Assembly: GCA_963733035.1 (NCBI GenBank)
Contig: CAVTBU010000005.1
Span: forward strand, 2,560,001-2,624,000
Origin: Pirellulales bacterium
GTDB taxonomy: Bacteria; Planctomycetota; Planctomycetia; Pirellulales; PALSA-1355
Direction: 5' to 3'
Length of the DNA stretch: 64,000 nt
Shown: in pieces, positions 23,862-38,103 of the stretch
Position numbering within the stretch: position 1 is the stretch's first letter
Layout of the letters: every line of letters starts with the position of its first letter
Translations under genes and position numbers: made by a program
The notes under the pieces: generated by a model
The model's database searches: none
Seen by the model: only the letters and a program-made list of their open reading frames with translations
Told to the model about the DNA's origin: nothing

Positions 23862-25942
23862 ATGGCTCAACAAACCCAGAAACAGCCCGCGAAACCGGCC
23901 GGTTCGATTGATCAACTCGCGATCAACACCATTCGCACCCTCTCGATGGACGCCGTGCAGAAGGCCAACAGCGGCCATCCTGGCACGCCGATGGCCCTGG
24001 CGCCCATGGCTTATACGCTATGGAACGAAGTGCTGAGGTACGACCCAGAACATCCGCTGTGGCCCGGCCGCGACCGCTTTGTGCTCTCGTGCGGGCATGC
24101 GTCCATGCTGCTCTACAGCGTGTTGCATCTGGCTGGGGTCAAGCAGTATCGAGACGGCAAGCCGACGGGCGAGCTGGCCGTGCCGCTCGACCAGATCGAG
24201 CAGTTTCGCCAATTGCACAGTCGCTGCCCCGGACATCCCGAGCACGATGAGACCTCGGGCGTCGAAACCACGACCGGCCCCCTGGGTCAGGGCGTCAGCA
24301 ACAGCGTCGGCATGGCCATTGCTCAGCGCTGGCTAGCCTCGCACTTCAACAAGCCGGGTTTCGAGTTGTTCGATTACAACATCTACGCCGTGTGCAGCGA
24401 CGGCGATCTGATGGAAGGCATCTCGAACGAAGCGGCGTCTCTGGCCGGACACCTCAAACTGTCGAATCTCTGCTGGATCTACGACGACAACACGATCACG
24501 ATCGAAGGGCATACCGAGCTGGCCTACAGCGACGACGTGCCGACGCGTTTCAAAGGCCTCGGCTGGCACGTCATCGAAATTGCCGACGTCAACAATCTGG
24601 ACTGCGCCTGCGCAAGGCTTACAAGTCGTTTGCCAAAACCGGCGACAAGCCGACGCTGATCATCGTTCACTCGATCATCGGCTATGGCGCGCCCGACAAG
24701 CAGAACACCTCGCATGCCCATGGATCGCCGCTGGGCGAAGATGAGATTCGCAAGGCCAAGGAGTTTTATGGCTGGCCGCCCGATGCTCATTTCCTGGTGC
24801 CCGACGAGGTACCCCAGCACTTTGCCGCGGGGATCGGAGCGCGCGGCAAGAAGCTATATGCCGACTGGCATGCCCAGTTCGAAGCATACGCTCAGAAGTA
24901 CCCCGAGCTTGCCGCCGAGTGGCAGACGATGGCCGCGCGCGAGTTGCCGAAGGGATGGGACAAGGACATTCCCACTTTTCCGGCCGATGCCAAGGGCCTG
25001 GCCAGCCGCAAGTCCTCGGGCGAAGTTATCAACGACGTGGCGAAGAACGTCCCCTGGTTGATCGGCGGATCGGCCGATCTGGCCCCGTCAACACTGACCA
25101 CGCTCAACGGCAACGATTCGTTCGAGGCCGGTTCCTACGGAGGCCGAAACTTCCATTTCGGCATACGCGAACATGGCATGGCCGCGGCGCTCAACGGCAT
25201 GGCCTTGTCAGATGTGCGCGCCTTCGGTTCGACGTTTTTCGTGTTCAGCGATTACCTGCGACCGTCGATGCGTCTTAGCGCGCTCATGCAATTGCCGGTG
25301 GTCTATATCTTCACGCACGATTCGATCGGCGTCGGTGAAGACGGCCCGACGCACGAACCGGTCGAACACTTGGCGGCGGCTCGGGCAATTCCGAACCTGT
25401 ACGTCATGCGTCCCGGCGATGCGAACGAAGTGGCGGCGGCCTGGCGGGCGATTATGCCGATCAAGAACCACCCGGTAGCGCTAGTGCTTACACGGCAGAA
25501 TCTGCCCACGCTCGATCGCACGAAATACGCGTCGGCCGACGGCGTGCTCCGCGGCGGCTATGTGCTGGCGGATTCCAAGCCGGGAAAACAACCAGACGTG
25601 ATTCTGATGGGCACCGGCAGCGAAGTCGGCGTCTGCGTCACCGCCTACGAACAGCTCGCCGCCAGCGGCGTAAGCGTGCGGCTGGTGAGCCTGCCGTGCT
25701 GGGAGCTATTTGATGCCCAGGATCAGTCCCATCGCGACAGCGTGCTGCCGCCGGCGGTTACCGCGCGCGTGGCCTGCGAGGCCGGCGTCGTGCAGGGCTG
25801 GGAAAAATACCTCGGCTTCCGCGGGCGATTCGTCGGCATGTCGACTTACGGCGCCTCGGCCCCCGGTGACCTGCTTTTCAAGCATTTTGGCATTACCGCC
25901 GAGAACGTCGTCAAGCAGGCCCAAGAACTACTTAAGAAGTAA
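23862..25942 (+). CDS. tkt: Transketolase, apparent frameshift near 24602
   Basis: [32 protein letters not shown] in ORF 23862..24659; [29 protein letters not shown] in ORF 24392..25942. Confidence 0.93.
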
Positions 25943-27251: not shown

Positions 27252-27418
27252 AGCCCTCGGGCCGACGCAGGCTGTCGTTTTTCCAGCTTGTGCGCTGCGC
27301 GACGGATTCCTACATTGTTGGGGGTTATCGAGTGCCCCTGATATGCAGTCCCCTGTCGATCGTGCGGCGTCCCACGTGTTGGAGGCGGTTCACTACCCGT
27401 GACTGAGAGGATCTCAAC

Positions 27419-27793
27419 ATGCATTGTGCAAAGTGCGGCAGTCCGAACCCTGACAATGCCACCGCCTGCGGGTCATGCGGTGCATCGTTGGCAAATCCTT
27501 ATGGAACAGCGCAGGCCCGAGGGCCGATCAATAACTACCTGATACCTGCGATCTTTTCCACTGTGTGCTGCTGTTTGCCGTTGGGAATCGTCTCGATCGT
27601 GTATGCCGCGCAGGTGAATGGGAAGTTGTCCGGCGGCGACGTCGCAGGTGCTCAGGAATCGGCGAACAAAGCCAAGATGTGGTTTTGGATTGCGTTCGGC
27701 CTGGGACTGCTGGTGAACGCCCTCGTCTTGATTGTGCAGATTCTGGGAGCCGTTATCGCGGTTCAAGAGAATCAGCCGGGTGGCGGGTTCTAG
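27419..27793 (+). CDS. Zinc-ribbon + CD225/dispanin family membrane protein (copy 1)
   Basis: CxxC-x10-CxxC N-terminus; NNYLIPAIFSTVCCCLPLGIVSIVYAAQVNGKLSGGDVAGAQESANKAKMW. Confidence 0.85.
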   Translation: MHCAKCGSPNPDNATACGSCGASLANPYGTAQARGPINNYLIPAIFSTVCCCLPLGIVSIVYAAQVNGKLSGGDVAGAQESANKAKMWFWIAFGLGLLVNALVLIVQILGAVIAVQENQPGGGF

Positions 27794-27817
27794 CAACGGC
27801 ATCGGAAACCAGCACGC

Positions 27818-28192
27818 ATGTATTGCCAGAATTGTGGTACGCAATTGCCTGATGGCACGGCCGTGTGTCACCAATGTGGCAACCCACCGCTGCGCATGCC
27901 GGTCGCGATGTCAACTTCTATTGAGAGCGATCCGGGCATGCGGATGCTGCTTCCCGTGGGACGCAGCGTGTGGGCGGTGCTTGCCGGATATGCCGGGCTG
28001 TTTGCCGTGCTGGGCGTCTGTGCGCCATTCGCTTTGATTTTGGGAATCATCGCGTTGGTGGACCTGAAGCGACATCCGGAGAAATATGGCCGGGGTCGGG
28101 CGATATTCGCGATCGTGATGGGCACGATTTTCAGCCTGATTGTCGTCTTCATTGTGATTGCGATCGCGTATGAGGAAGCGTCGCGCCACTAG
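27818..28192 (+). CDS. Zinc-ribbon + DUF4190-like membrane protein
   Basis: CxxC-x10-CxxC; LLPVGRSVWAVLAGYAGLFAV..APFALILGIIALVDLKRHPEKYGRGRAIFAIVMG. Confidence 0.75.
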   Translation: MYCQNCGTQLPDGTAVCHQCGNPPLRMPVAMSTSIESDPGMRMLLPVGRSVWAVLAGYAGLFAVLGVCAPFALILGIIALVDLKRHPEKYGRGRAIFAIVMGTIFSLIVVFIVIAIAYEEASRH

Positions 28193-28201
28193 GAACTCAG
28201 C

Positions 28202-28600
28202 ATGTACTGTCACGTTTGCGGCAAGCACAATCCTGACAATGCCTCGAGTTGTCATGCCTGCGGCGCTACATTCGCCAATCCATATCAAGCTCCTGCAGCT
28301 CCCCAACAAGCTGCCGGCACGTATTCAGGGGGCACGCCAACGCACCTCAACAATTACTTGGCGCCCGCAATTTTCGCCACGCTTTGTTGCTGCCTGCCGT
28401 TTGGCATCGTGTCGATCGTCTATGCGGCACAAGTCAACGCCAAGCTTGCCGGCGGCGACATATACGGCGCAATGCAGTCGGCGCAGAGTGCGAAGATGTG
28501 GTTTTGGATCGCCTTTGGCTTCGGCGTCGTTCCCCAGGTTCTGTACTTGGGGCTCATCCTATTTGGCGCGATCACCGGCCTCCTCGAGGGCCCAAGATGA
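28202..28600 (+). CDS. Zinc-ribbon + CD225/dispanin family membrane protein (copy 2)
   Basis: CxxC-x10-CxxC; NNYLAPAIFATLCCCLPFGIVSIVYAAQVNAKLAGGDIYGAMQSAQSAKMW. Confidence 0.85.
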   Translation: MYCHVCGKHNPDNASSCHACGATFANPYQAPAAPQQAAGTYSGGTPTHLNNYLAPAIFATLCCCLPFGIVSIVYAAQVNAKLAGGDIYGAMQSAQSAKMWFWIAFGFGVVPQVLYLGLILFGAITGLLEGPR

Positions 28601-29014
28601 GCAATCTTGTGCAATCGCGAACGGCACTCCGCTCACTTCGCGCGGTTGCAATTCTCGTCGGAATGCTCGGATTGATCCTGGTTCTATATCAGGTTAATCC
28701 ATCATCGGTGAGCTGGCTGCCGAAGTGCCCCGTCTACCAATTGACCGGCTGGCACTGCCCCGGATGTGGAGCCACACGCGCCGCTCATGCCATGCTGCAT
28801 GGCGACCTGCCTCGCGCTGGCCAAGAACCCGCTACTTGTTGGCGCCGGGCCGCTGATCGTGGCGTACGGTGTCTGGAAGCGACAGCGCGAAGGTCGCGGC
28901 TGGACGACCACTGTTTCGGCTCGCGCAATTCTCATTCTGCTCGCCGTGCTGATTGTGTTTGCGATCCTGCGCAACCTACCGGGCTATCCGTTTGAGCTGC
29001 TTGCACCGCATTGA
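28597..29014 (+). CDS. DUF2752-like membrane protein, apparent frameshift near 28810
   Basis: ATGA overlap with the previous stop; LPKCPVYQLTGWHCPGCGATRAAHAMLHGDL continues in another frame as ALAKNPLL...FAILRNLP. Confidence 0.8.
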
Positions 29015-29320
29015 GCAGCGCAATTTCGCGTTGTTGTCATGGTCAACCGATAAATCCTACTCAAGCCAACGCGGACACCCGATGGTAGTGGTAGGGTAAC
29101 TGAGGTATTTTGCGCACGATTCTACCGTTTGCGAGCGCAAAGTCGTTTGGGTTTTTGTTTTGGGCCGCTTTTGGTAGCTTGGCCCCAGCCAACCACCCCC
29201 ACCGCCATGCTCGCAACGTAGAATGGATGAAGGCGGCGCGCTTCGTGCGGGCTGTAGCGACTGCGACAGTACCCCACATTCAATACGCGTCCATTTAGGC
29301 AGTGCCGTGGAGCTTGCACC

Positions 29321-30817
29321 TTGAGAATCTTGTTGGCCACCAGCGAAGCGGTGCCCTTCGCCAAGACCGGCGGCCTGGCCGACGTTTGCGGCGCGCTGCC
29401 GGTCGAACTGGCGAAACTGGGACACGAGCCGGTCGTCCTCCTGCCAGCCTATCGACAGGCCCTGGCAGCCGGCCTGCTCGTGGAGCGGACCGGCGTCAGC
29501 TTCGATGTGCCGATCGGCAGCAAGACCGTCAGCGGCGAGTTTCTCAAAAGCCACTTGCCCGACAGCGACGTGCCGGTTTACCTGGTCGAGCACGACCACT
29601 ACTACAACCGCGCGGGATTGTATCAAGACGCCGGCGAAGACTACCGCGACAACTGTGAACGATTCGTGTTCTATTGCCGCGCGGTGTGCGAAGCGATCCG
29701 GCTCTTGGATCTGAACGTCGAAGTCGTGCATGCCAACGATTGGCAAACTGCACTGATTCCGGCGTACCTCAAACTCGAATATCACGGCATCCCGGGCTAC
29801 GAGCAGCTGGGCACGCTGTTCACCATCCACAACATGGCCTATCAGGGCGTGTTCTGGCACTGGGATATGCTGCTCACCGGGCTGGATTGGAAATACTTCA
29901 ACTGGCAACAGATGGAATTCTTCGGCAACCTCAACTTGCTGAAGACCGGGTTGATCTTTTCCGATCGGCTCAATACCGTCAGCCAGCGGTACTCCGAAGA
30001 AATTCAATCCGCGCCGCTTGGTTGCGGATTGGAGGGAGTGCTACAAAACCGCCGCGAAGTCCTTTCGGGCATCGTCAACGGCGTCGACGACCGCCAGTGG
30101 GATCCGGCGAAAGATGGCCGACTGGCCGAGACGTACACGGTCGAAACGGTTACCGCGGGTAAGGCGGCCGGCAAGAGCGCCTTGCAACTCGAGCTCGGTC
30201 TACCGCAAAAGCCGGACGTGCCGCTGGTGGCGTTCATCGGTCGCCTGGTGACGCAAAAGGGCATCGACCTGTTGACGGCCACCATTCGCGATTGGGTGCA
30301 GACACGCGACGTACAATGGGCCATTCTGGGGACCGGCGAAGCCGACTACGAGCAGCAACTTGCACAACTGACCGAGCGATTCCCGCATCGGGTGGCCACG
30401 AAGCTCGAATTCTCAAACGATCTTGCTCACCGCATGGAAGCCGGTGCCGACATGTTGGTGATGCCCAGCCGTTATGAGCCGTGCGGGCTGAACCAACTCT
30501 ACAGTCTCAAATACGGCACGGTGCCGATCGTGCGAGCCACCGGTGGCCTGGTCGACACGATCACCGACGCGAACGAGGCCACGCTGGCCGCTGGCAAGGC
30601 AACCGGCTTCATGTTCGGCGACTACAGCACGCTGGCCCTGAGCGAGGCTCTTGACCGGGCCTGCGCCACCTACGCCCGCCCGGAAATCTGGCGGCAACTC
30701 GTCACAACCGGCATGCGGCAAGATTGGTCGTGGGCCAACAGCGCTCGGCAATATGTCGAGCTATACCGCGCCACGATCAACGGGGTCCGTCGCGGCCTGG
30801 TGACGGGAAATGCCTAG
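29321..30817 (+). CDS. glgA: Glycogen synthase (GT5)
   Basis: SEAVPFAKTGGLADV, HANDWQT, FTIHNMAYQG, GIVNGVD, MPSRYEPCGLNQLYSLKYGT. Confidence 0.95.
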   Translation: MRILLATSEAVPFAKTGGLADVCGALPVELAKLGHEPVVLLPAYRQALAAGLLVERTGVSFDVPIGSKTVSGEFLKSHLPDSDVPVYLVEHDHYYNRAGLYQDAGEDYRDNCERFVFYCRAVCEAIRLLDLNVEVVHANDWQTALIPAYLKLEYHGIPGYEQLGTLFTIHNMAYQGVFWHWDMLLTGLDWKYFNWQQMEFFGNLNLLKTGLIFSDRLNTVSQRYSEEIQSAPLGCGLEGVLQNRREVLSGIVNGVDDRQWDPAKDGRLAETYTVETVTAGKAAGKSALQLELGLPQKPDVPLVAFIGRLVTQKGIDLLTATIRDWVQTRDVQWAILGTGEADYEQQLAQLTERFPHRVATKLEFSNDLAHRMEAGADMLVMPSRYEPCGLNQLYSLKYGTVPIVRATGGLVDTITDANEATLAAGKATGFMFGDYSTLALSEALDRACATYARPEIWRQLVTTGMRQDWSWANSARQYVELYRATINGVRRGLVTGNA

Positions 30818-30999
30818 CGAGGGGCCTGGAAAGAGTGCCGGCAAGAGCGTAGGCTAAGGGCGCTGTAAAAAGTCAGGCGGTTGGGCATTCGATCGGCGGC
30901 ACCTTAACGATGGTCCGCGGTAACGCTGCCCGCGAGTAATTGGGCCCATTGTGGTACCCGAGCTTTGAAAGGCTCCTAGCGCCGCCCTGAACACGCGTC

Positions 31000-33195
31000 A
31001 TGCACGACCTCTCCGTCGCCTTCGTCTGGCATCAGCATCAGCCCTACTACGTTGACGACGTGGCCGGTTTTAATCCCATGCCCTGGGTGCGGCTGCACGG
31101 CACCAAAGATTATTGGGGGCTGGCCATGCATCTGGCCGAAGTGCCCGAGGTGCATGCCACGATCAACTTGGTGCCGAGTTTGCTGCAGCAGATCCTGGGA
31201 TACACCAAGCACGGGCAGCAAGACGAACACCTTCGTGTTTCGCACTTGCCGGCCGATGGATTGAGCGAGGCCGAGGGCCGCTTCCTTCTCGATACGTTCT
31301 TCATGGCCAACCCGGACCAGATGATCCGGCCTTATCCGCGGTATTGGGAGCTCTACCAGCAACGTGGCCTGCACGTCGACAGCGCCGAGCGCGCGCTGCG
31401 TCGCTTTGCACCGCGAGACATCCTTGACTTGCAGTGTTGGAATAACCTGGTCTGGTTTCATCCGATCGCGTTTGAGAAGGACAAAGACCTGGCGGAGTTT
31501 CGCCACAAGGGAGGACATTGGACCGAAGACGAAAAGCGGTGGCTGCTCGACAAGCAGATGCAGCTCCTGGCCGAGGTAATTCCGCTACATCGGAAGCTGG
31601 CCGAACGAGGCCAGGTCGAACTCACCACGACGCCGTTTTTTCATCCCATCCTGCCGCTGCTCATCGACAAGCGGCTGGCCAAGGCCGCCATGCCCGGCGT
31701 GCATTTGCCCAAGCGACTGGAAGGCTATCCGGAGGATGCCGCCGAACATATTCGCCGCGCCGTGGCTTATCACACGGAACTATTCGGTAGCCCACCAGTC
31801 GGCATGTGGCCCTCCGAAGGTTCCGTCGCCCAGCCGATCATCCCACTGGTGGCGGCCGCCGGCATCCAGTGGATCGCCAGCGACGAGGAGATTCTATCCC
31901 GCTCAACCGATGGTTGGGTTTCGCGCGACGGCCAAGGCATGGTGCAGCACCCCGAAATGCTGTATTGCCCTTGGCGGGTGGAAGAATCGGGACACGAGCT
32001 GAGCATGATCTTTCGCGATCATGCTCTCAGCGACCAGATCGGTTTTCACTATCAGCGATATCACTCGGATCAGGCGGCCGAGGACTTGATTGGCAAGCTG
32101 GAAGCGATCGGGCGGGCGACCGAGGCTCATTCCGCGCGGCGGCCGACGCTGGTTAGCATCATTCTCGACGGAGAGAACTGCTGGGAGTACTACCCGAACA
32201 GCGGCGTCGAGTTCCTGCGGTCGCTGTACCACGGCATCGCGCGGCATCCGCGAATTCACGGCGTGCGCGTCCGCGATTACCTGGAAAAGCATCCTCCGAC
32301 CGAACGTCTCGGGCATTTGTTTGCCGGTAGTTGGATCAGTCATAACTTCGGCATCTGGATCGGGCATCCGGCCTGCAATCGAGCCTGGGACCTGCTCTCG
32401 GAGACGCGTGAAGTGCTCGTGCAGCAGGCCGCCAAAGTTGAGATCTCGCCCGCCAAACTAAAACAAGCTTGGGAGGAGCTCTTCATTGCCGAGGGGAGCG
32501 ACTGGTTCTGGTGGTTCGACGACCGGCATTCCAGCGCTCAGGACTCGCTGTTTGATGAACTATTTCGCAAGCGTCTGCAAAACGTCTACGCGCTCGTCGG
32601 CCTCGAGCCACCCGCCGCGCTACAGAAACCGATCGGTGGTGATCGCCGACACGTCGTGCCTTACACGCAGCCGACGGCACTGCTGCACGTGAAAGTAGAC
32701 GGCCGCGAAACCTATTTCGAATGGCTCAACGCCGGCCTGTATAGCACCTCGACCGGACGCGGCACGATGAACATGGCCGACGTTCAACGGATCGAAAAGG
32801 TGCTGTTCGGCTTTGACGACGACCGGCTGCTGCTCCGTTTTGACACGCAGGGCACGGCGCGCGATCGCCTGGTCGACGTCGATCAAATGCGAATCGCCTT
32901 TCTGCAGCCGGCCGGGTTTGAACTCTTGATCAGCCACCCCGGCAAGCAGCGGTGCACGGCCCGCTTGTTTCACAACGAGGTGCCGGTCAGCGCGCCCGGA
33001 ATCGAAGTCGCGATCGGCACGATCCTGGAAGTGGCAATCCCGTGGCGGAGTCTGGCCGCCGCGGCGGGTGCTCCGCTGCACTTCGTGACTGAACTATATG
33101 TTGAGGAGCGTTCCATCGAACGCATACCCCAGGAGGGTGCGCTGGAGACGACCGTGCCCTCGCCCGACTTCGAACTGATGATGTGGCAGGCCTAG
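31000..33195 (+). CDS. GH57 alpha-glucanase (amylopullulanase-like)
   Basis: WHQHQPYY, PWVRLHGTKDY, HPILPLL, GMWPSEGSV, ILDGENCWEYY, AEGSDWFWW. Confidence 0.9.
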   Translation: MHDLSVAFVWHQHQPYYVDDVAGFNPMPWVRLHGTKDYWGLAMHLAEVPEVHATINLVPSLLQQILGYTKHGQQDEHLRVSHLPADGLSEAEGRFLLDTFFMANPDQMIRPYPRYWELYQQRGLHVDSAERALRRFAPRDILDLQCWNNLVWFHPIAFEKDKDLAEFRHKGGHWTEDEKRWLLDKQMQLLAEVIPLHRKLAERGQVELTTTPFFHPILPLLIDKRLAKAAMPGVHLPKRLEGYPEDAAEHIRRAVAYHTELFGSPPVGMWPSEGSVAQPIIPLVAAAGIQWIASDEEILSRSTDGWVSRDGQGMVQHPEMLYCPWRVEESGHELSMIFRDHALSDQIGFHYQRYHSDQAAEDLIGKLEAIGRATEAHSARRPTLVSIILDGENCWEYYPNSGVEFLRSLYHGIARHPRIHGVRVRDYLEKHPPTERLGHLFAGSWISHNFGIWIGHPACNRAWDLLSETREVLVQQAAKVEISPAKLKQAWEELFIAEGSDWFWWFDDRHSSAQDSLFDELFRKRLQNVYALVGLEPPAALQKPIGGDRRHVVPYTQPTALLHVKVDGRETYFEWLNAGLYSTSTGRGTMNMADVQRIEKVLFGFDDDRLLLRFDTQGTARDRLVDVDQMRIAFLQPAGFELLISHPGKQRCTARLFHNEVPVSAPGIEVAIGTILEVAIPWRSLAAAAGAPLHFVTELYVEERSIERIPQEGALETTVPSPDFELMMWQA

Positions 33196-36585: not shown

Positions 36586-37935
36586 TATTTGGCAGCCTCC
36601 GCGGGTGCCTGGTCGAGCTCTTCATCGGTGGAGATGCCGCCGGGAGCCGCCGGTCTTTCGTCCGGCAGATCGTGTCCGTCCAAGCGACCGTAGCGCCGCA
36701 GCTCCGGCACGCTCGCCGCCGCCACCAGCACGACCACCAGCGTTCCCAGTCCCCCAAACACGACGGCAAACACGGCGGAAGTAAGCCGTGCCAGCGTGCC
36801 GGATTCGAACTCGCCAAGCTCGTTCGAGGCGCTGATGAACATGCCGCTAATGGCTGATACTCGGCCGCGCATTCGGTCGGGCGTGAGCATCTGCACCAGC
36901 GTATGGCGAATGATGACGCTCACGCAGTCGAAGGCGCCCATTGAAAGTAGCGCCAAAAACGACAGCACGAACGACCGCGAGATTCCGAACACAAACGTCG
37001 AAACGCCAAATCCGGCGACGGACCACAGGAGCGATCGGCCCGCCTTGGCCATCGGCGGACGATGCATCATGGCCAGCGACATCGTCAGCGCACCGATCGA
37101 TTCGGCGGCCGCCAACCAGCCGTAACCGACTGGTCCCACTTCCAGGATGTCCTTGGCGAAGATCGGCAGCAAGGCTTTCGCTTCGCTGAGCAGCACGGCG
37201 AACATGTCGAGTGCCATGGCACCCAGAATCACCTTGTTTCGCCAGACGAACTCAAAGCCCTCGACCAGCGTCCGCATCGTGGCCGCCTGGGGCGTAAACT
37301 CCGACGGGCGGCGTTCGACGCGCGTCAGCAGCAGGATAAACACGGCCGCGGCCACCGCCTGGTACAAATAGGCGAAGTAAGCCTGGCCGAGCAGCCGCCA
37401 GCGACAAGCCACCAAGCGCCGGCCCGACGGCAGCCGCAAGTTGAAAGCCACCCAGGTTCCAGGTTACCGCGTTGGCGAACACCGATCGCGGCACCAGTTG
37501 CGGCAGCAGCGAACTCTTGGCCGGTTGTTGAAAGGCTCGGGCCACGCCGATCATGAACAAGCAGCCGTAAAGCCCCACGATGTGCCATTGAAAGAATGAG
37601 ACCGCGGCTAATCCTAGAGAAGCCAGGAGATTTAGCGCCAGCGCGCAACTCAAAACGATGCGTCGGTCGAATCGGTCAGCCACGTGCCCGCCGACCAAGG
37701 CCAGCGAGAGCACCGGCACGACCAGTACCAATCCAACCAGGCCGATGCTGAACGGATCGCCAGTCCGCTTGTAAACCTCCCACACCACGGTCACCGACTG
37801 CATTTGCATGCCCAGGATCGACAGCATGTTGCCGAACCAATACTTGCGGAAGTTGCCGCTACGAATGGCGGCATACGCATCGTGAACCGGGGGCGAGGGA
37901 GACGGGCTGGAATCGTCGGAGTTAGGCGTGCTCAC
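36585..37935 (-). CDS. MFS transporter (EntS/DHA3-like), apparent frameshift near 37400
   Basis: GGHVADRFDRR motif A in ORF 37252..38025; ALDMFAVLL, TPDRMRGRVSA, SNELGEFESG in ORF 36585..37451. Confidence 0.85.
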
Positions 37936-38103
37936 AGGTCCATTATGGCAAGCCCCCGGCCACAGGTAAGACCCTTCGCAAAATCCAAACGCTCCGGCGC
38001 GGTTCCACGATGGGCAAGCATCCACTCAGCCAACGTGCGCCCGATGGTCGACTGTGCGACAAACCATGCCCGGGTTGCTCGTTCGCGCATCGGCGCGGCA
38101 CGG

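Follow-up and report, generated by a model that had tools for sequence, protein, structure and literature searches.

The closest known counterparts of the proteins discussed here include eukaryotic members of the CD225 (dispanin) family, namely PRRT1/SynDIG4, PRRT2 and IFITM3. In native AMPA receptor complexes SynDIG4 is an auxiliary subunit made of a re-entrant helix and one transmembrane (TM) helix, according to the portion of that report available to us (PMC13262616), and a bioRxiv abstract describes the same arrangement for PRRT1 and GluA1. Bacterial dispanins were catalogued in 2012, and the IFITM and other dispanins are thought to derive from bacteria (PMC3282796, available in part). In 2015 two mycobacterial CD225 proteins, referred to as "IFITMs", were expressed in human cells, where the accessible part of the paper reports moderate resistance to influenza (PMC4488726). 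The present analysis concerns a stretch of 64,000 nucleotides (nt) from a Pirellulales bacterium (contig CAVTBU010000005.1, positions 2,560,001 to 2,624,000; hereafter the window), in which two genes of this same Pfam family, g1 and g3, stand in a four-gene cluster together with a DUF4190 gene (g2) and a DUF2752 gene (g4). We lean, by a modest degree, towards reading the locus as an enlarged version of a conserved two-gene membrane module, in which a DUF2752 gene comes directly after the gene of a zinc-ribbon dispanin and whose products would form a complex in the cytoplasmic membrane with DUF2752 as the common core.

The window's dispanins resemble PRRT1/SynDIG4, PRRT2 and IFITM3 in having a broken first segment, a basic GD-x-x-GA loop, a single TM helix and a double cysteine in the first segment. 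They differ at the N-terminus, which is a Cys4 zinc ribbon in the bacterial dispanins studied here and is proline-rich or endocytic in the eukaryotic ones. They also differ in being encoded with DUF2752, a family for which we know of no eukaryotic counterpart, and in having no known channel, SNARE or virus partner. The window's dispanins are not filed here as IFITMs; of the traits that mark that subfamily, namely restriction of virus entry, S-palmitoylated cysteines and induction by interferon, their sequences show the cysteines alone. The bacterial dispanins of PMC3282796 and PMC4488726 share with them, as far as the available text of both papers goes, the CD225 domain, two hydrophobic domains and, in many cases, a di-cysteine motif; the present subfamily has the zinc ribbon and the DUF2752 partner, which may set it apart. 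The word "operon" is absent from the available text of both papers, and "neighbor" from that of PMC4488726. Our literature search, which left subscription journals and supplements outside its reach, found no paper on DUF2752 or PF10825 and none combining CD225 with DUF4190; DUF4190 was mentioned in one paper only.

The four genes run in the same direction between a class I/II aminotransferase gene upstream and a glgA-type starch synthase gene downstream (both by Pfam), with 24 nt between g1 and g2, 9 nt between g2 and g3, and an ATGA overlap between g3 and g4 (ATG of g4 at 28597). A previous, sequence-only reading of this DNA had described these four short genes with their spacing and flanks, their CCC clusters, GD-x-x-GA...AK loops and C-x9-CPGCG motif, and had named the families in order as dispanin, DUF4190, dispanin and DUF2752; the open reading frames (ORFs), their translations and the Pfam profiles bear all of this out. 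Every family scores above its cut-off: CD225 (PF04505) in g1 at E 4.9e-24 (84.7 bits) and in g3 at E 1.4e-21 (76.8 bits; cut-off 27.1), DUF4190 (PF13828) in g2 at E 5e-10 (39.4 bits; cut-off 35), and DUF2752 (PF10825) at E 6.3e-14 (52.2 bits; cut-off 27) in the first part of g4 only. The assignment of g2 is consistent with its 415 homologues at E ≤ 0.001, since PF13828 is found in all of 120 among the matches listed. NCBIfam returned no match above its cut-offs. Zn_Ribbon_1 exceeds its 25-bit cut-off in g1 (28.3 bits), g2 (28.9 bits) and g3, and in a profile comparison this ribbon is the sole homologous part between the dispanins and g2 (29 columns, probability 97.9). The two dispanins are 55% identical to each other (129 columns). 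The 6.65 Mb genome holds in total two CD225, three DUF4190 and two DUF2752 matches, and both CD225 genes, one of the DUF4190 genes and one of the DUF2752 genes lie within the 1.6 kb of the cluster; with so few copies in the whole genome, the clustering of the four is not a matter of chance. A set of 14 control genomes contained no CD225 gene at all.

The pairing of CD225 with DUF2752 recurs well outside the window. We compared 30 related genomes (labelled G, the window's own being G000; loci are labelled L). At the DNA level the search of these relatives gave fragments only, while a strong dispanin protein was present in three of them (G004, G007 and G017), all from other genera of the same family. 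G007 and G017 have CD225-DUF2752 and G004 has DUF4190-CD225-DUF2752. The same aminotransferase gene stands upstream of the pair in G007 and G017, and in G000, G007 and G017, which represent three genera, the cluster keeps its place after the aminotransferase and ahead of the downstream genes. A wider scan based on g3, with one genome per species, recovered 32 loci, with a CD225 match in 31, and in 30 of those 31 a DUF2752 gene lies directly 3′ on the same strand; the exceptions are L274, with CD225 alone, and L275, with a match to the zinc ribbon only. By record title these loci come from Planctomycetota, Dehalococcoidia, Acidobacteriota, Verrucomicrobiales, Bacteroidota and Actinomycetota.

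Searches that started from the other member of the pair lead back to the same neighbours. With P0001, an intact DUF2752 homologue, as the query, CD225 and/or DUF4190 was directly upstream in 21 of 66 loci; with P0077, also a DUF2752 protein, CD225 was upstream in 34 of 80, mostly in Xanthomonadales and also in Clostridia and Acidimicrobiia. We then ran Pfam on 48 hydrophobic upstream ORFs from the 62 loci that had given no match, leaving out 26 loci from Actinomadura/Spirillospora, and found DUF4190 in 12 more loci and DUF4234 in 3. Pfam picked up many DUF4190, TM2 and DUF4234 neighbours that had escaped our own CD225 and DUF4190 hidden Markov models (HMMs), so neighbour counts based on these HMMs alone are lower bounds. 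Altogether, with phyla again read from record titles, the pair occurs in about ten: Planctomycetota, Lentisphaerota, Verrucomicrobiota, Acidobacteriota, Armatimonadota, Chloroflexota, Bacteroidota, Pseudomonadota, Actinomycetota and Bacillota. All the recovered loci of Xanthomonas, Lysobacter and Stenotrophomonas (Pseudomonadota) have it. The two genes are also tightly spaced, as the DUF2752 HMM match begins a median of 89 nt after the CD225 stop codon (81 pairs); when the nearest in-frame start is taken, a choice that favours short gaps, an overlap of 1 or 4 nt results in 38 of them. The earlier suggestion that the products work jointly is thus supported indirectly, by adjacency and tight spacing of CD225 and DUF2752 in many phyla.

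The larger arrangement of the window is rarer than the pair. The triplet DUF4190-CD225-DUF2752 recurs (L102, L108, L109, L133, L236, L249), and the full order CD225-DUF4190-CD225-DUF2752 was seen, among the loci examined, only in the window and in a relative about 92-94% identical to it. Two public soil metagenome runs from different studies, X1 and X3, contain closely related DNA; the relative comes from X3, whose contigs bridge g1-g2 and g2-g3-g4 and carry an intact g4. In the sequence-only reading the four genes, DUF2752 included, had equal standing. The comparison shows instead that CD225 followed by DUF2752 is the conserved core, to which the DUF4190 gene and the second dispanin gene are add-ons.

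Some pairs have further companions. In Flavobacteriaceae (Dokdonia and Winogradskyella, L260-L273) the modules are in tandem, a divergent DUF2752 gene, accompanied in some by a weak CD225-like ORF, preceding a CD225 gene and a second DUF2752 gene; in L264 a small ORF between the tandem modules matches MpPF26. RDD-family membrane proteins are encoded beside the pair in G017 (L235, 2772-3359, plus strand) and in a proteobacterial metagenome-assembled genome (L127, 4324-5262, minus strand), and in L127 an ORF with a zinc ribbon and a pilin domain also adjoins the pair.

The sequence and predicted structure of the dispanins are consistent with the PRRT1 type of architecture. In an alignment of 51 dispanin sequences, C51 of the double-cysteine motif is invariant and C52 is 98% conserved, and the GD-x-x-GA loop is kept through the conservation of G73, D74, G77 and A78. 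The loop of CD225 has a mean net charge of +1.1, with 3.25 lysines and arginines on average. An AlphaFold2 model of g1 (predicted local distance difference test, pLDDT, of 86.1) has helices at residues 41-50, 53-71 and 75-117, and the first hydrophobic segment breaks at the double cysteine. In the model, then, this segment would be re-entrant, with the cysteine cluster at its turn. The profile of the bacterial CD225 proteins matches PRRT1 in PDB 9zks (chain M, residues 216-299) at E 1.2e-17 over 84 columns. With the g1 model, Foldseek gave no match at E ≤ 0.001, PRRT1 included; 9zks was perhaps not in the library, whose entries ran to April 2026.

For DUF2752 we modelled P0001 from an alignment of 47 sequences, and the AlphaFold2 model reaches a pLDDT of 93.7. 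The family has three invariant cysteines, with the CPGCG motif at the start of a helix, although one DUF2752 subfamily is without the first of them. Mean net charge is +2.1 at the N-terminus, -0.1 in the cysteine loop, +2.2 in the loop at residues 90-98 and -0.3 at the C-terminus. This distribution suggests a protein with its N-terminus inside and three TM helices, in which the 46-residue cysteine loop and the C-terminus would be periplasmic and the loop 90-98 cytoplasmic. By sequence we found no relatives of DUF2752 among solved structures, and Foldseek, run with the model, likewise found none at E ≤ 0.001. A search of the protein atlas with DUF2752 returned no usable match.

These observations can be put together as follows. 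The four genes would be read as one transcription unit, and the lineage of the window would have added, ahead of the core pair, a zinc-ribbon DUF4190 gene and a second dispanin gene. The products may assemble in the cytoplasmic membrane around DUF2752. The three hairpin proteins are predicted to share one build, with a cytoplasmic zinc ribbon, a re-entrant first segment, a basic loop in the cytoplasm and a single TM helix. Their membrane parts would make the contact with DUF2752, to which they would attach as auxiliary subunits able to replace one another. The contact of PRRT1/SynDIG4 with the membrane domain of AMPA receptors offers, by analogy, a possible model for the contact between a hairpin protein and DUF2752, and the common zinc ribbon would give all three hairpin proteins one shared cytoplasmic contact.

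Several results weigh against a conserved module of this kind. Three genomes of the window's own genus, 97-100% complete, have no strong dispanin, and the module is on that ground dispensable. Related species account for many of the loci with the pair, so that these cannot count as independent, and pattern-based searches are biased towards close subfamilies. Among 8000 candidates there was no fused form of DUF2752 longer than 227 residues, which is weak evidence. The count of terminator-like sites in the region is not above chance (three found, 2.2 expected). An unbiased view comes from 251 genomes sampled evenly across the phylum of the window, in which DUF2752 occurs in 152 and CD225 above the cut-off in 15. 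Some 16 CD225 loci outside the window's genome could be assessed there, and DUF2752 lies directly 3′ in three (G066, contig 134 of G108, and G107); in G051 a weak DUF2752 match is upstream of CD225, and one further locus is at a contig end. The dispanins of the three positive loci are among the closest to those of the window, which confines the link to one CD225 subfamily.

The converse count also limits the link. We took 80 DUF2752 loci from the phylum sample, the best match of each of 60 genomes and 20 lower-scoring matches picked by hand, and 57 of them have no small membrane protein gene directly upstream on the same strand. Recurrent upstream neighbours in these 57 are Rce1-like proteins (6), LptE (3), HU (3), UQ_con (2) and YmdB (2). 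The partners in the other 23 belong to TM2 (8), DUF4190 (5), DUF4234 (5), CD225 (2), Yip1 (2) and DUF975 (1), and a Zn-ribbon or GYF_2 match occurs in 14 of these 23 loci. DUF2752 is thus a broad family, and one of its branches is linked with small hairpin membrane proteins, which themselves fall into several unrelated families.

The contexts of the remaining DUF2752 genes are varied. An Rce1-like (CAAX/CPBP) intramembrane protease is encoded upstream on the same strand in L014, L016, L034, L038, L050 and L060. In L051 and L064, from one genus, the gene directly upstream of DUF2752 is a 303-residue ORF with a match to UQ_con, the ubiquitin-conjugating enzyme family (E 6.6e-11), and so a bacterial E2-like protein. 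The second DUF2752 gene of the window's genome (L086; contig 7 of G000, 564709-570852, minus strand) lies 3′ of a split YmdB gene and has no small membrane neighbour; the same YmdB-DUF2752 order occurs in G220 (L084), where YmdB is intact. In Actinomadura and Brachybacterium (L154-L156 and L148) DUF2752 lies a few hundred nt 3′ of the gene for Trp_oprn_chp, a membrane protein associated with the tryptophan operon, with no CD225 gene. Long open frames around DUF2752 matches were considered as possible fusions and rejected, as they proved to be upstream read-through in GC-rich DNA.

Of the alternatives to a stable complex, the one that survives best is that DUF2752 is a dedicated but transient biogenesis factor, helping small re-entrant hairpin proteins to insert or fold. 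We rate this as unlikely, if worth keeping in mind. It would account for partners that come from several unrelated small membrane families of similar build, for DUF2752 always being the downstream gene and often translationally coupled, and for the several hairpin genes per DUF2752 gene in some clusters (the window, L088, L089 and L137). Yet 57 of the 80 DUF2752 genes of the phylum sample have no such neighbour, most other CD225 genes of the phylum do without DUF2752, and the insertion of CD225 proteins in eukaryotes and in many bacteria does not depend on it. No result here separates a stable contact from a transient one.

The cysteines point to another alternative, in which DUF2752 would work as an enzyme or a cofactor subunit with thiol activity, engaged in disulfide exchange, metal binding or S-acylation, that acts on the membrane cysteines of its neighbours. 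DsbB and VKOR are small membrane thiol oxidoreductases with a CxxC next to a TM helix. Like them, DUF2752 is a small polytopic inner-membrane protein whose cysteines would, on the topology predicted above, be periplasmic; unlike them, it has three predicted TM helices, three cysteines rather than two pairs, and no evident quinone site, and no similarity of sequence or fold to either was detected. The invariant cysteine triad with CPGCG at a helix start suits a thiol role, as does the near-invariant double cysteine of the 51 dispanins, which in the g1 model sits deep in the membrane, where helix 41-50 breaks off and helix 53-71 begins. The cysteine motif has, moreover, been kept in bacteria although S-palmitoylation is not known there, as stated in the available part of PMC3282796. 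Against this, the charge bias would place the cysteine loop of DUF2752 in the periplasm and the dispanin loop in the cytoplasm, that is, across the membrane from each other. Among the DUF4190 partners no cysteine is conserved in the membrane part (one or more are present there in 36%), and the subfamily that lacks the first DUF2752 cysteine fits poorly. Nor is there a sign of an acyltransferase, as g4 has no DHHC match in Pfam and D-H-H-C occurs in neither g4 nor P0001 (a match of the g2 zinc ribbon, at E 0.44, is noise). We also looked for selenocysteine codons: no stop such as TGA occupies a cysteine position in any of 200 instances of the motif from our loci, and a scan of the species collection with a narrow pattern gave 36 matches, all of them out-of-frame noise in GC-rich DNA and none in a DUF2752 gene. 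An alignment of the DUF2752 model with VIA-align over 48,161 solved chains gave a best Z of 3.5, with DsbB and VKOR not among the listed matches. A thiol role of this general kind is improbable on present evidence.

A separate question is whether g4 is a working gene at all. The sequence-only reading had put the end of the cluster at 29014. The frame from 28597 in fact stops at 28995 after a non-membrane tail, and its Pfam match to DUF2752 ends at profile position 31 of 49, while the conserved C-terminal part of the family (LALAKNPLL...LLAPH) sits in the next frame, at 28814-29014. The stretch 28597-29014 is not one open frame, and the frameshift lies near 28813. Our DUF2752 HMM matches both halves (3e-19 and 3e-15), and the invariant residues of the family (C-x9-C-P-G-C-G-x-T-R, N68 and R116-N117) are all present across the two frames. 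The spacing of HGDxxxALxxNPLL is invariant in all 47 aligned DUF2752 homologues and, because the homologues all keep it, a loss of two nt in the CGCGC run (28813-28817) fits the break. Related DNA agrees with this: a 302-nt contig from X1 has CG inserted behind 28812 and is otherwise identical, and an 887-nt contig from X3 (about 94% identical) has CG inserted at the same place. With the two extra nt, g4 would encode a product of 139 residues.

It could be that g4 is truly broken in this organism and that the module is decaying, the cluster being non-functional as it stands. The loss is there in the window's sequence, and the module is dispensable within the genus. But the X1 contig, identical over 300 nt save for the indel, and the X3 contig both have the two bases, and g4, whose halves each still match DUF2752, is otherwise free of defects. 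Other conserved genes are split as well. In the window, the transketolase gene (23862-25942, plus strand) is broken near 24603, with Transketolase_N positions 1-219 in 23862-24659 and 222-334 in the frame of 24392-25942, for which a loss of one nt after the GA of CTGGA-CTGCGC fits; and a transporter gene of the major facilitator superfamily (Pfam MFS_3/MFS_1; 36588-38025, minus strand) is split near 37255-37463 into overlapping frames (profile positions 3-168 and 168-391). Three frameshifted conserved genes in 64 kb suggest about one indel per 20 kb in the assembly. The YmdB-like phosphoesterase gene beside the second DUF2752 gene, on contig 7 (L086), is also split into two ORFs, and the genome, in 10 contigs, is 92% complete, compared with 97-100% for those of the same genus; the split genes and the lower completeness fit indel errors of assembly. 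Because X1 and X3 carry the CG and other conserved genes are also split, an assembly error is the likeliest cause of the frameshift in g4. We hold this with high confidence, and regard genuine decay as correspondingly doubtful.

The sequence-only reading had favoured a different function, in which the four proteins stiffen or bend the membrane as IFITM3 does and thereby block the entry of phage DNA, predator attack or envelope stress, as a defence system. We find this quite unlikely. The proteins are true CD225 homologues with the double cysteine and GD-x-x-GA, the mycobacterial experiment cited above gives the idea a precedent, and a distribution as patchy as three strong dispanins in 30 relatives is compatible with an accessory gene. 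Set against these points, PADLOC-DB 2.0 contained no family matching any of the five proteins queried (g1, g2, g3, P0001 and P0007; E ≤ 0.01). Among 68 flanking ORFs, 63 from 15 loci of other lineages and 5 from the window, the Pfam matches were housekeeping or metabolic apart from one IS110 transposase, and no recognisable defence gene was present, although the sample is small; the window's own flanks are transketolase, aminotransferase, glgA and a protein of glycoside hydrolase family 57 (GH57). Neither the expected location near defence islands nor the block by membrane stiffening finds support here. The chromosomal position, stable in G000, G007 and G017, also speaks against a defence system, as does the fact that tailed phages inject their DNA and do not fuse membranes. 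The sole paper we found that links IFITM with phage defence cites IFITMs as a eukaryotic analogy and nothing further. With every recovered Xanthomonas and Lysobacter locus keeping the pair, it looks more like a core gene than like a variable defence island. Most likely, the physiological role of the module is a constitutive membrane or envelope function and not phage defence.

The weakest proposal is the narrower thiol one, very improbable in our estimate, that DUF2752 is specifically the thiol-active partner of bacterial dispanins, its cysteine triad modifying, oxidising or metal-bridging their membrane-embedded cysteines; if true, it would be a bacterial counterpart of the control of IFITM3 by palmitoylation, would explain why bacteria retain the cysteine motif, and would imply that eukaryotes took the dispanin and swapped DUF2752 for DHHC enzymes.

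The coordinates of the cluster and of nearby sites are collected in Table 1. Of the two terminator-like hairpins, the one upstream of g1 is a candidate terminator that would set the cluster apart from the aminotransferase gene. A scan of the region that was restricted to sigma-70-like promoters found none. Directly 3′ of the cluster, at 29321-33195 on the plus strand, glgA (Glyco_transf_5) and the GH57 family gene follow each other as a glycogen-metabolism pair.

Table 1. Positions of the four genes and associated sites, numbered from the first nucleotide of the window.
Feature	Position	Strand	Description
g1	27419..27793	+	Cys4 zinc ribbon (N-terminal) and CD225/dispanin, 124 residues; CCC at residues 50-52; loop GGDVAGAQESANKAK
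g2	27818..28192	+	Cys4 zinc ribbon (N-terminal) and DUF4190, 124 residues
g3	28202..28600	+	Cys4 zinc ribbon (N-terminal) and CD225/dispanin, 132 residues; CCC cluster; loop GGDIYGAMQSAQSAK
g4, first part	28597..28813	+	Start of DUF2752, TM1, C-x9-CPGCG-x-TR; frame of 28597
g4, second part	28814..29014	+	Next frame: ALAKNPLL, TM2, basic loop, TM3, LRNxPxYPFxLLAPH, stop
g4 frameshift site	28813..28817		CGCGC run, 2 nt fewer than in related DNA
Terminator-like hairpin and T run	27263..27277	+	Just 3′ of the aminotransferase stop; consensus match only
Terminator-like hairpin and T run	29132..29149	+	About 120 nt 3′ of the g4 stop, 5′ of glgA; consensus match only

The window holds an enlarged variant of an unpublished, recurrent module, and its g4 is unreadable as assembled. 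That CD225 is exchanged for DUF4190, TM2, DUF4234 or Yip1 beside DUF2752 suggests one common membrane machine. Dispanins, the IFITM proteins included, are important for antiviral immunity and for neuronal signalling. One of their subfamilies keeps its partner gene over some ten phyla, and this provides a testable handle on the family, since both genes can be transferred together to a host that has neither family.

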